DNA from: an uncultured Bacteroidales bacterium
GTDB lineage: Bacteria; Bacteroidota; Bacteroidia; Bacteroidales; JACABE01
DNA: 24,000 nt
Assembly (NCBI GenBank): GCA_903899825.1
Contig: CAIUKU010000178.1
Span: 2,961-26,960, forward strand
Direction: 5' to 3'
Shown: positions 9,354 through 10,691 of the stretch, piece after piece
Layout of the letters: every line of letters begins with the position of its first letter
Position numbering within the stretch: position 1 is the first letter of the stretch
Program-made: the position numbers and the translations under genes
The notes under the pieces: generated by a model
What the model saw: only the letters and a program-made list of their open reading frames with translations
Databases searched by the model: none
Told to the model about the DNA's origin: nothing

Positions 9354-10385
9354 ATGAATAGTAATTATATCATTGGTCAGATAGTTACAAAAATTGGTAA
9401 TATTGAGCAGGTTTCTTCGGTTTGGAGTTACTCTGATATTCTCTCTACAATAAAGGTTCGTTGGTCGTTGGGTAGGATGAATTACATTGTAAAACCCGGA
9501 TTATATGCAATTGGATTACCTGATGAAAGTTCAGATGTTTTTATTTCCTGTAATTTTAAATTAAGCTTTGATTATTTACGTCGTGCATTGCTGGGTTTCA
9601 ATGCATGGATACTGGTTATTGACACTAAAGGTATCAATGTTTGGTGTGCGGCCGGTAAAGGAACATTTGGCACAACTGAACTTGTTCATAGAATTAAAGT
9701 ACATGAACTTGATAAAGTTGTTCAACATAGAAAAATTATTGTTCCTCAGTTAGGTGCAGTCGGGGTAGCTGCTCATGAAGTTAAAGCAACCACAGGGTTT
9801 AGGGTCATATATGGACCTGTAAGTGCTGATGATATTAATGCATTTGTATCATTAAATTATAAAGCTACGAATGAGATGCGTAAAGTTAAATTCAGTCTTA
9901 TGGACAGAATAAAACTTATTCCTGTTGAACTTTCATATGGCAAATACTATCTTTTACTTGTTCCTGCAGTATTTTTTATCTTATCAGGGTTTAATCCCCA
10001 CGGATTTTCTGTTGATATTGCCTGGAATAATGGTGGTAAAGCTGTTTTAAATTTACTAGCAGCTTATATATCAGGATGTGTTTTTACACCAGTTTTACTT
10101 ACTGTGATTCCTTTTAAAAGATTTTCCTTAAAGGGGCTCTTTATAGGTTGGATGATAGCTGTATTGTTATTGAAGATAAATTTTTTGGGAAATCAACTTA
10201 TTGAAGTAATAGCCTGGTTTTTGATTATTGGCGGACTATCTTCTTTCCTTGGAATGAATTTTACCGGTTCCTCTACATTTACTTCTCTGTCGGGTGTTCA
10301 AAAAGAAATGAAATTGTCGTTGCCTTTGCAGATTATTGGGGTTTCGTTAGGGTTTATAACTTGGATAGTATCAAAATTTATTTAA
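9354..10385 (+). CDS. hgcA: HgcA, corrinoid protein of the mercury-methylation pair
   Basis: Diagnostic cap-helix motif GINVWCAAGKGTFGT (Cys codon 9645-9647). Flanking blocks VKPGLYAIG, NFKLSFDYLRRAL, IVPQLGAVGVAAHEV, FRVIYGPV. C-terminal half has about five hydrophobic helices. The 9354 start sits 5 nt after the upstream stop; the 9315 variant overlaps that gene. Confidence 0.9.
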   Translation: MNSNYIIGQIVTKIGNIEQVSSVWSYSDILSTIKVRWSLGRMNYIVKPGLYAIGLPDESSDVFISCNFKLSFDYLRRALLGFNAWILVIDTKGINVWCAAGKGTFGTTELVHRIKVHELDKVVQHRKIIVPQLGAVGVAAHEVKATTGFRVIYGPVSADDINAFVSLNYKATNEMRKVKFSLMDRIKLIPVELSYGKYYLLLVPAVFFILSGFNPHGFSVDIAWNNGGKAVLNLLAAYISGCVFTPVLLTVIPFKRFSLKGLFIGWMIAVLLLKINFLGNQLIEVIAWFLIIGGLSSFLGMNFTGSSTFTSLSGVQKEMKLSLPLQIIGVSLGFITWIVSKFI

Positions 10386-10391
10386 AAAAAC

Positions 10392-10691
10392 ATGAATGGT
10401 TTAACTTATCTTAAGAATGTAATTACACTACAGCTGGATACGGTGAAATGTAACGGCTGCGGTATGTGCACAATTGTTTGTCCACATGAAGTGTTTTTAA
10501 TAATAGATAAAAAATCTTTTATTAAAAATAAAGATTATTGCATGGAATGCGGAGCCTGTGCGAAAAATTGTGCAGCCAATGCAATAACTGTAAAGACGGG
10601 TGTAGGATGTGCTGCAGGTATCATAAATGGTTTGATAAATGGAACTGAGCCAAATTGCGATTGTTCTGGTTCAGGCAATAGTTGTTGTTAA
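10392..10691 (+). CDS. hgcB: HgcB, 2x[4Fe-4S] ferredoxin partner of HgcA
   Basis: 99 aa. Two CX2CX2CX3C clusters (CNGCGMCTIVC, CMECGACAKNC), conserved GVGCAAGII, and a Cys-rich tail NCDCSGSGNSCC ending in the vicinal CC. Starts 6 nt after hgcA. Confidence 0.9.
   Translation: MNGLTYLKNVITLQLDTVKCNGCGMCTIVCPHEVFLIIDKKSFIKNKDYCMECGACAKNCAANAITVKTGVGCAAGIINGLINGTEPNCDCSGSGNSCC

Follow-up and report, generated by a model that had tools for sequence, protein, structure and literature searches.

We know of no route to environmental methylmercury other than HgcAB, the corrinoid protein and ferredoxin pair that Parks and colleagues reportedly described in 2013 in Pseudodesulfovibrio mercurii ND132. 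Here, we report on a 24,000-nt stretch of DNA from an uncultured Bacteroidales bacterium (contig CAIUKU010000178.1, positions 2,961 to 26,960 of the forward strand; hereafter the window, with positions counted from its first letter), in which an hgcA–hgcB pair lies among arsenic-resistance (ars) genes. Work on purified HgcAB of ND132, the only enzyme of the kind for which this is shown, established S-adenosylmethionine (SAM) as the methyl donor, methylcob(III)alamin as the intermediate, and Co-thiolate ligation; the same study cites mutagenesis in which HgcA C93 and HgcB C73/C94/C95 were crucial (Zheng et al. 2024, PMC11588087). In ND132, ArsR2 controls hgcAB, and both arsenic and S-adenosylhomocysteine induce hgcAB (Gionfriddo et al.). 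In wetlands and lakes, Bacteroidales that carry hgcAB are abundant and active in transcription, and Bacteroidetes hgcA transcripts were dominant in fen metatranscriptomes (McDaniel et al. 2020, PMC7438021).

The ars linkage of hgcAB is already published (McDaniel 2020; Gionfriddo 2022/2023; Peterson 2025). McDaniel et al. 2020 (PMC7438021) showed in their Fig. 6 hgcAB flanked by acr3, arsC, arsM, and arsR in selected genomes, Gionfriddo et al. reported ArsR-type regulators beside hgcAB in Bacteroidetes including Paludibacter jiangxiensis, and Peterson et al. 2025 observed, in a lake, that transcribed hgcA had arsR and acr3/arsC close by, a setting associated with lower hgcA expression. The locus described here adds nothing new on the enzyme itself, the exact protein being already in databases; its added value is modest, i.e., a quantified clade specificity of the ars linkage, a candidate ArsR operator/promoter, and a conserved pair of genes for a Cys-rich protein and a DsbD-like protein before hgcA. 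We consider it very probable that the locus holds a bona fide HgcA–HgcB pair inside an ArsR-controlled ars gene string, working by the mechanism of the ND132 enzyme.

The hgcA–hgcB pair

Three features define the pair.

9354..10385, + strand: hgcA, 343 aa; corrinoid-binding domain at about residues 17-170, followed by a membrane domain of five helices
9636..9659, + strand: cap-helix motif NVWCAAGK (residues 95-102), regular-expression match to N[VI]WC[AS][AG]GK
10392..10691, + strand: hgcB, 99 aa; 2x[4Fe-4S] ferredoxin with Cys73 and a Cys-rich C-terminal tail (CDC...CC)

HgcA scores 417 bits on the NCBIfam equivalog model NF040863 (HgcA_corrinoid; cut-off 275, E = 4.8e-125), with residues 17-343 covering model positions 1-325 of 325, and HgcB scores 117.5 bits on NF040864 (HgcB_ferredoxin; cut-off 99, E = 1.8e-34), with residues 5-99 covering model positions 1-93 of 93. 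E values of this size put both matches far beyond chance, and they support the identification of the pair as HgcAB in a preliminary description of the same DNA. That description had proposed setting HgcA against paralogues of the corrinoid iron-sulfur protein (CFeSP) type by hidden Markov model (HMM) or by phylogeny. Against its 417 bits on the HgcA model, the protein reached 199 bits with the model for HgcAB-like fusions and 66.5 bits with that for CFeSP gamma, and it thereby stayed below the respective cut-offs of 285 and 306. These HMM scores effectively refute the alternative that we are dealing with a non-methylating paralogue (CFeSP/AcsC-type or HgcAB-like fusion) or a decaying copy. Such a paralogue would be in keeping with the Pfam result, which shows the shared CdhD corrinoid domain only (residues 44-164), and with several database sources that name homologues 'acetyl-CoA synthase gamma subunit'; it is at odds with the Thr that CFeSP carries at the Cys98 position and its lack of a membrane domain, with the separate and adjacent hgcB, and with reading frames of hgcA and hgcB that contain zero frameshifts and zero internal stops and, for HgcA, 90 invariant columns over 35 aligned homologues.

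The phylogenetic placement points the same way. A neighbour-joining tree built from 81 HgcA sequences puts the window HgcA deep within a cluster of Bacteroidota-labelled genomes only, in agreement with the Bacteroidetes HgcA monophyly of McDaniel et al. 2020 (PMC7438021). The earlier assignment of the DNA to a Bacteroidota-type genome is likewise borne out by the names of the matches, a neighbouring protein with a type IX secretion system (T9SS) sorting domain, and promoter boxes of the TAnnTTTG type. Homologues of HgcA at E<=1e-10 number more than 8000, thousands of them being Bacteroidales proteins of 343 aa, and many bear the name HgcA at NCBI. Identity among the best 120, most of which have 343 aa, is 66-73%, several of them being named 'mercury methylation corrinoid protein HgcA [Bacteroidales bacterium]'. 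The near-constant length kept by thousands of homologues implies purifying selection. The nearest GTDB species-representative genome has an HgcA 71% identical, and data of NCBI, JGI, and ENA already include the identical protein, on short contigs of the same layout. One contig in the tree (SACF01000039.1, L027), binned as Alphaproteobacteria, has an HgcA that hardly differs from the one in a Bacteroidales metagenome-assembled genome (MAG; L029) and falls inside the Bacteroidota cluster; it is probably mis-binned.

The cap-helix signature GINVWCAAGKGTF is found in HgcA, and the codon TGT of Cys98 lies at 9645-9647, exactly as the preliminary description had it; Cys98 is the predicted lower axial thiolate ligand of cobalt. 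Residues N95-K102 are invariant across the 35 aligned homologues. For the wider comparison, window proteins were searched by tblastn against 80 loci around HgcA relatives, and 87 loci (numbered with the prefix L) were examined in all; the cap-helix motif is present in 78 of the 81 HgcA sequences taken from them. An alternative ATG at 9315 would give a longer ORF overlapping the upstream gene; the start at 9354 is preferred because almost all homologues are 343 aa long and the HgcA HMM match begins at residue 17.

An AlphaFold2 (AF2) model made from the 35 homologues (predicted local distance difference test score, pLDDT, 79) has an N-terminal Rossmann-like, CFeSP-like corrinoid domain followed by C-terminal helices at 197-210, 220-247, 257-274, 282-307, and 312-340. 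Hydropathy peaks at the chosen threshold comprise four segments (about 234-252, 257-279, 277-303, and 321-343), the first membrane helix (about 197-210) being under that threshold, so that the soluble N-terminal domain and about five hydrophobic helices described earlier are confirmed. The top match of the model in a PDB fold library is 9a0b_A (39% identity over 323 columns, E 2.6e-19), which is itself a deposited integrative computed model (2020) of the ND132 HgcAB complex; the next matches are CFeSP large subunits over about 150 residues. A sequence search of the PDB with HgcA returned CFeSP large subunits only (residues 27-167, Thr aligned to Cys98). No solved HgcA structure thus appeared in the PDB sequence search, and the fold search gave the computed ND132 model alone.

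The start of hgcB follows the hgcA stop by 6 nt. HgcB carries two CX2CX2CX3C motifs, CNGCGMCTIVC (Cys20/23/26/30, next residue P) and CMECGACAKNC (Cys50/53/56/60, next residue A), Cys73 within GVGCAAGII, an extra CDC (Cys89/91), and the terminal pair Cys98-Cys99; the 99-aa ferredoxin with these elements had been correctly described. Its tail, TEPxC(D/G)C...CC, is conserved among HgcB proteins of many phyla. The preliminary description also called the pair intact and functional. All hallmark residues are present and the frames are unbroken, so that the first adjective stands; function is something that we infer, as up to Peterson et al. 2020 methylation of Hg had been demonstrated experimentally for none of the Bacteroidales.

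The steps of the proposed mechanism are those of the Pseudodesulfovibrio mercurii ND132 enzyme, carried over by homology. HgcA would be a membrane-anchored corrinoid protein with the Cys98 thiolate under the cobalt, and HgcB its dedicated two-cluster ferredoxin. Low-potential electrons from HgcB would yield Co(I) (step 1), which would be methylated by SAM to give the Cys-ligated CH3-Co(III) (step 2), and the methyl group would then pass to Hg(II) bound by thiols, among them Cys73 and the two C-terminal Cys of HgcB, giving CH3Hg+ (step 3).

The ars gene string and its probable regulation

The preliminary description overlooked the ars operon that surrounds hgcAB, with arsM beside it, which bears directly on its remark that the native role of the pair is unknown. 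Between 32 and 13535, every gene lies on the + strand. Besides hgcAB and the two genes directly before it, which are listed in the next section, the string consists of the following features.

4879..4906, + strand: palindrome TTTAATGTCG-N8-CGTCATTAAA, candidate ArsR operator/promoter; 0 expected by chance
4883..5251 (probable start 4916), + strand: arsR, ArsR/SmtB metalloregulator; NF033788 62.4 bits vs 55
5279..6007, + strand: thioredoxin-like protein
6020..7237, + strand: FtsX/MacB-type permease
7194..7925, + strand: ABC ATPase
7930..8379, + strand: arsC-like gene, thioredoxin-type arsenate reductase (low-molecular-weight protein tyrosine phosphatase fold); Pfam LMWPc 66.5 bits; Cys10, Cys82, Cys89
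10812..11645, + strand: arsM, SAM-dependent arsenite methyltransferase; NF008823 350.8 bits vs 263; Pfam Methyltransf_31
11846..12046, + strand: 66-aa Cys-rich ORF ending in GGCGCGCNC; coding status uncertain
12453..13535, + strand: acr3, arsenite efflux permease, last gene of the string; TIGR00832 436 bits vs 282.8
13555..13576, + strand: terminator-like hairpin after acr3, from a consensus scan only

From arsR to hgcB, intergenic distances range from -44 to +27 nt, and the gaps after hgcB are 120, 200, and 406 nt. The palindrome at 4879..4906 looks like an ArsR operator overlapping a promoter, which is the likely reading: its spacer TATGTTTG agrees with TAnnTTTG, the -7 consensus of Bacteroidota, and its core GTCGTATGTTTGCGAC is invariant ahead of arsR in four further loci (L012, L023, L046, L082) and also occurs near arsP in L084. 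As the operator overlaps the ATG at 4883, the true start of arsR is probably the ATG at 4916. In the orthologue alignment, ArsR has Cys93 and a C-terminal CNC, which are possible As(III) ligands.

No second ArsR operator was found before hgcA, arsM, or acr3 within 2-3 mismatches, 4879..4906 being the sole such site in the window, and the later intergenic gaps of the string contain no TAnnTTTG box; a sigma-70-type promoter scan of the window was uninformative for Bacteroidota. Given the single palindrome and the lack of later boxes, hgcAB is most simply seen as part of the ArsR-controlled transcript. The whole string from arsR to acr3 is thus probably transcribed from an ArsR-repressed promoter at about 4889, and its expression is therefore predicted to respond to arsenite rather than mercury.

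The conservation of this context was evaluated over the loci around HgcA relatives, divided into close loci (HgcA at least 55% identical, all Bacteroidota-labelled except L027) and distant ones (below 55%, mostly other phyla). A co-directional ars gene lies within 3 kb in 31/36 close and 10/44 distant loci (Fisher p = 1e-8). When only arsC, acr3, or arsM is counted within 3 kb, the figures are 26/36 and 9/44 (Fisher p = 4e-6), and this is the safer comparison because short or fast-evolving proteins such as ArsR are detected preferentially in close relatives. The gene acr3 follows hgcB within 1 kb at 13 of 26 close and 4 of 35 distant loci. Adjacent arsM occurs in four other loci only (L018, L024, L028, L034), always upstream, and the order hgcB-arsM-small ORF-acr3 is absent from the 86 other loci save the identical contig L081. 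The locus is a clean example of hgcAB apparently hard-wired into an arsenic operon beside arsM, and together with the clade statistics it supports the published idea that arsenic, not mercury, controls hgcAB expression in many methylators.

Several points weigh against a functional HgcAB under ArsR control. Co-transcription is proposed from gene spacing only, and simple scans may have missed promoters or terminators in the 120, 200, and 406 nt that separate the genes after hgcB. The level of hgcA transcript predicts the methylation rate poorly, even in ND132 (Gionfriddo et al.). The arsC-like protein scores 136 bits on TIGR02691, under the equivalog cut-off of 174. In the AF2 model of HgcA, the cap-helix segment 94-104 has a pLDDT below 50, as expected for a model without the cofactor, so the geometry around the cofactor is not captured. 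The second cluster motif of HgcB ends in ...NCA, whereas most relatives have ...NCP. Finally, Peterson et al. 2020 state that experiments had confirmed none of the Bacteroidales as a methylator, and later (post-2020) experimental proof of a Bacteroidota isolate methylating Hg was not found in the literature, which is not proof of absence. Hg methylation by this HgcAB, a transcript shared with the ars genes, and whatever part the pair may have in the handling of arsenic are inferences, and it is not our wish to claim more for them than this.

Some features of the string are recorded for completeness. ArsM has an N-terminal CC..CC plus Cys65/153/203. The 66-aa ORF behind it has an N-terminus 41% identical to ArsM residues 1-46 (SSCCGASTSCC vs ArsM NSCCGVGSSCC) and gave no family match; it may encode an As(III)-binding peptide in its own right or be what is left of a duplication. 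The idea that a second, truncated arsM follows this ORF was considered and rejected, as no arsM remnant is present there. The 406-nt non-coding region before acr3 (12047-12452) contains a tandem 21-nt repeat at 12155..12195, nested palindromes (GATTGGCTT/AAGCCAATC at 12327/12354 and ACCGCTAAGCGGT at 12337 and 12387), and, at 12409..12436, AT-rich direct repeats CATTTT(T/C)AAATT; L016 and L084 have multiple copies of similar AT-rich pieces, 36-45 nt long, close to their ars genes. The trio of thioredoxin-like, FtsX, and ABC genes accompanies ars/hgcAB genes also in L012, L016, L019, L024, and L025, and the FtsX/ABC pair does so in L006.

The Cys-rich/DsbD-like pair and a possible role in arsenic handling

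Two genes for Cys-bearing membrane proteins stand between the arsC-like gene and hgcA.

8363..8647, + strand: Cys-rich membrane protein of 94 aa with a single pass; its gene overlaps arsC on one side and the DsbD-like gene on the other
8647..9348, + strand: DsbD_TM/CcdA-like six-helix membrane protein, 233 aa; stop 5 nt before hgcA

The 94-aa protein has an N-terminal DCGCxxxCC, one transmembrane (TM) helix, and a C-terminal C...SCCP, with Cys10/12/80/88/89 invariant in 12 orthologues; it has no Pfam or NCBIfam family. The DsbD-like protein matches Pfam DsbD_TM marginally (30.5 bits vs a gathering threshold of 27.1). Its family is small, with 323 matches at E<=1e-5, nearly all of them 233 aa and annotated CcdA. 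From 24 orthologues and 32 homologues, the invariant Cys residues form a C-x-C (Cys33/35) in TM1 and a CC-(N/S)-P (Cys153/154, Pro156) in TM4. Canonical CcdA uses one essential Cys in TM1 and one in TM4. The DsbD-like protein shares with CcdA/DsbD the six helices and the DsbD_TM domain and differs from them by the C-x-C and the CC-(N/S)-P. The latter motif, as we take it, recalls the CC..P motifs of Mer mercury transporters, a resemblance without profile support; neither the DsbD-like nor the Cys-rich protein matches a Mer family in Pfam even at E<=10. Nothing was found at E<=1 when the DsbD-like profile was run against PDB sequences, and an AF2 model of the protein, with a pLDDT of only 62, is too poor to judge the Cys geometry.

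The DsbD-like gene lies directly upstream of hgcA at 19 of 34 close loci and at 1 of 40 distant ones (Fisher p = 1e-7). Six further family members were inspected for their gene order. In L082, L084, and L085, the Cys-rich/DsbD-like pair stands directly before hgcA within ars genes. In L086, the pair is followed by a Fic-type insertion and then hgcAB, without ars genes; the inserted gene, at 5712-6686 of that locus and located between the DsbD-like gene and hgcA, has a Fic/RhuM domain. In L083, the order is arsR, small ORF, DsbD-like gene, and then ArsM in place of hgcAB, and in L087 the pair occurs alone. From L082 to L086, the DsbD-like gene has a small ORF before it; in L087, a tblastn match to the small Cys-rich protein lies just upstream, with no called gene. 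The pair thus mostly travels with hgcAB and once with another methylating enzyme. In the literature searched, no link was found between such a pair, DsbD, or cytochrome c biogenesis and hgcA, and a literature search for a Bacteroides ars operon with a DsbD-like gene gave nothing.

The pair is probably accessory, acting in a thiol-based hand-over of a soft metal(loid) or in the transfer of reducing equivalents across the membrane, i.e., as a CcdA-type shuttle, and the two proteins are candidates for the substrate-delivery step. A bolder reading takes the Cys-rich protein, the DsbD-like protein, HgcA, and HgcB as one four-gene cassette, a real functional unit in the Bacteroidales clade with a thiol relay and an ArsR-wired role in detoxification; we regard this as rather improbable. 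Its first two proteins would carry Hg(II) or As(III) across the membrane or to the Cys tail of HgcB, which, if true, would supply the missing uptake/delivery step of mercury methylation, and a cassette wired to an ArsR switch would imply that HgcAB there is selected for metalloid detoxification. In the hgcAB-less L083, the same front end of two genes stands before ArsM.

L083 and L086 bear also on a related explanation, in which HgcAB is true to type and its selected role in the clade is the handling of arsenic, with Hg methylation as a side reaction. HgcAB might act on an arsenic species or aid the chemistry of ArsM/ArsC, and such a role would be compatible with Hg methylation. The position of hgcAB between arsC and arsM/acr3 with minimal spacing, the clade-wide ars linkage, and the use of SAM by HgcAB and ArsM alike are consistent with it, and so is L083, where the Cys-rich/DsbD-like pair before ArsM looks as if methylating modules were interchangeable. 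In ND132, the hgcAB deletion mutant was more sensitive to As(V) and arsenic induced hgcAB; however, the ND132 cultures formed neither mono- nor dimethylarsenicals, and loss of hgcAB did not raise the sensitivity to As(III) (Gionfriddo et al.). L086, with the Cys-rich/DsbD-like pair and hgcAB free of ars genes, and the missing ars neighbours at most distant hgcAB loci argue in the other direction. Co-location in a resistance island, where fluoride and organoarsenical genes are found too, can mean shared regulation or transfer, not chemistry. On balance, a selected arsenic role seems unlikely to us, though worth keeping in view, and an HgcAB that methylates mercury as in ND132 under the control of ArsR is the reading that we retain.

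Flanking genes and relation to known systems

Upstream of arsR, the window holds an organoarsenical-type cluster and a fluoride-resistance unit.

32..3645, + strand: organoarsenical-type cluster, upstream of the fluoride unit
3828..3890: fluoride riboswitch, Rfam RF01734 45.7 bits vs 34
3918..4295, + strand: crcB
4298..4666, + strand: DUF190 gene

The cluster at 32..3645 comprises an ArsP-like permease, whose 5' end falls outside the window, together with a DGC-domain protein, a rhodanese, a double thioredoxin with an MTH895/ArsE-like and a Trx part, an unknown protein of 118 aa, and a MetA-like channel of the outer membrane. The cluster is similar to 'operon C' of ND132, ArsR5-ArsP-ArsE-DGC, which is arsenic-induced there (Gionfriddo et al.). 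A Bacteroidota-type -7 box, TACTTTTG, lies at 3824 directly before the fluoride riboswitch, and the fluoride-resistance unit (3824-4666) as a whole is wedged between two arsenic-related clusters. Beyond the hairpin after acr3, a minus-strand gene encodes the protein with the T9SS sorting domain, a Bacteroidota marker. Further downstream, 18280-19322 and 21826-22602 encode a DUF3795 protein, a PEMT/ICMT-type membrane methyltransferase, and a DUF1295 (steroid-reductase/ICMT-like) protein; no link of these genes to the hgcAB region was established. A mobile-element origin was considered and rejected: GC content is about 29-42% without a step at the ars/hgc string, and the window contains no tRNA, integrase, or transposase.

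These neighbours bear on one more explanation, that the natural task of HgcAB is to act on halomethanes, by reductive dehalogenation of CCl4 and trihalomethanes, and that it methylates Hg incidentally. It comes from a 2026 preprint (10.64898/2026.04.26.720869) that reports CCl4 dechlorination by ND132, by Geobacter PCA, and by heterologously expressed HgcAB. This is a single preprint on other organisms, and the neighbours in the window are all metal(loid), thiol, or fluoride genes with nothing for halomethane metabolism among them, so that we hold a halomethane role to be very unlikely at this locus.

Among the known systems, the CFeSP large subunit (AcsC/CdhE-type; 2h9a, 4djd, 4c1n) has in common with HgcA the corrinoid-binding Rossmann-like domain of about 125-150 residues and differs in having no Cys ligand (Thr), no membrane domain, and an N-terminal [4Fe-4S] domain. 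The Bacteroidetes/Bacteroidales hgcAB described from MAGs and from strain NM7 of Paludibacter jiangxiensis (McDaniel et al. 2020, PMC7438021; Peterson et al. 2020) belong to the same HgcA cluster, with the same reported acr3/arsC/arsM/arsR flanks; the order hgcB-arsM-small ORF-acr3 is found only in the window genome. With ND132 HgcAB, the window pair shares the two-gene layout, the N(V/I)WCA(A/G)GK cap helix, the five-helix domain, the two-cluster ferredoxin with Cys73 and CC, and an ArsR-family regulator upstream. In ND132, however, no further ars genes colocalize with hgcAB, the ars operons being elsewhere in the genome, whereas in the window hgcAB lies between arsC and arsM/acr3, after the small Cys-rich protein and the DsbD-like protein. 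The regulators differ as well: compared with that of ND132, the window ArsR has no Cys in the DNA-binding helix region and carries Cys93 and the C-terminal CNC instead.

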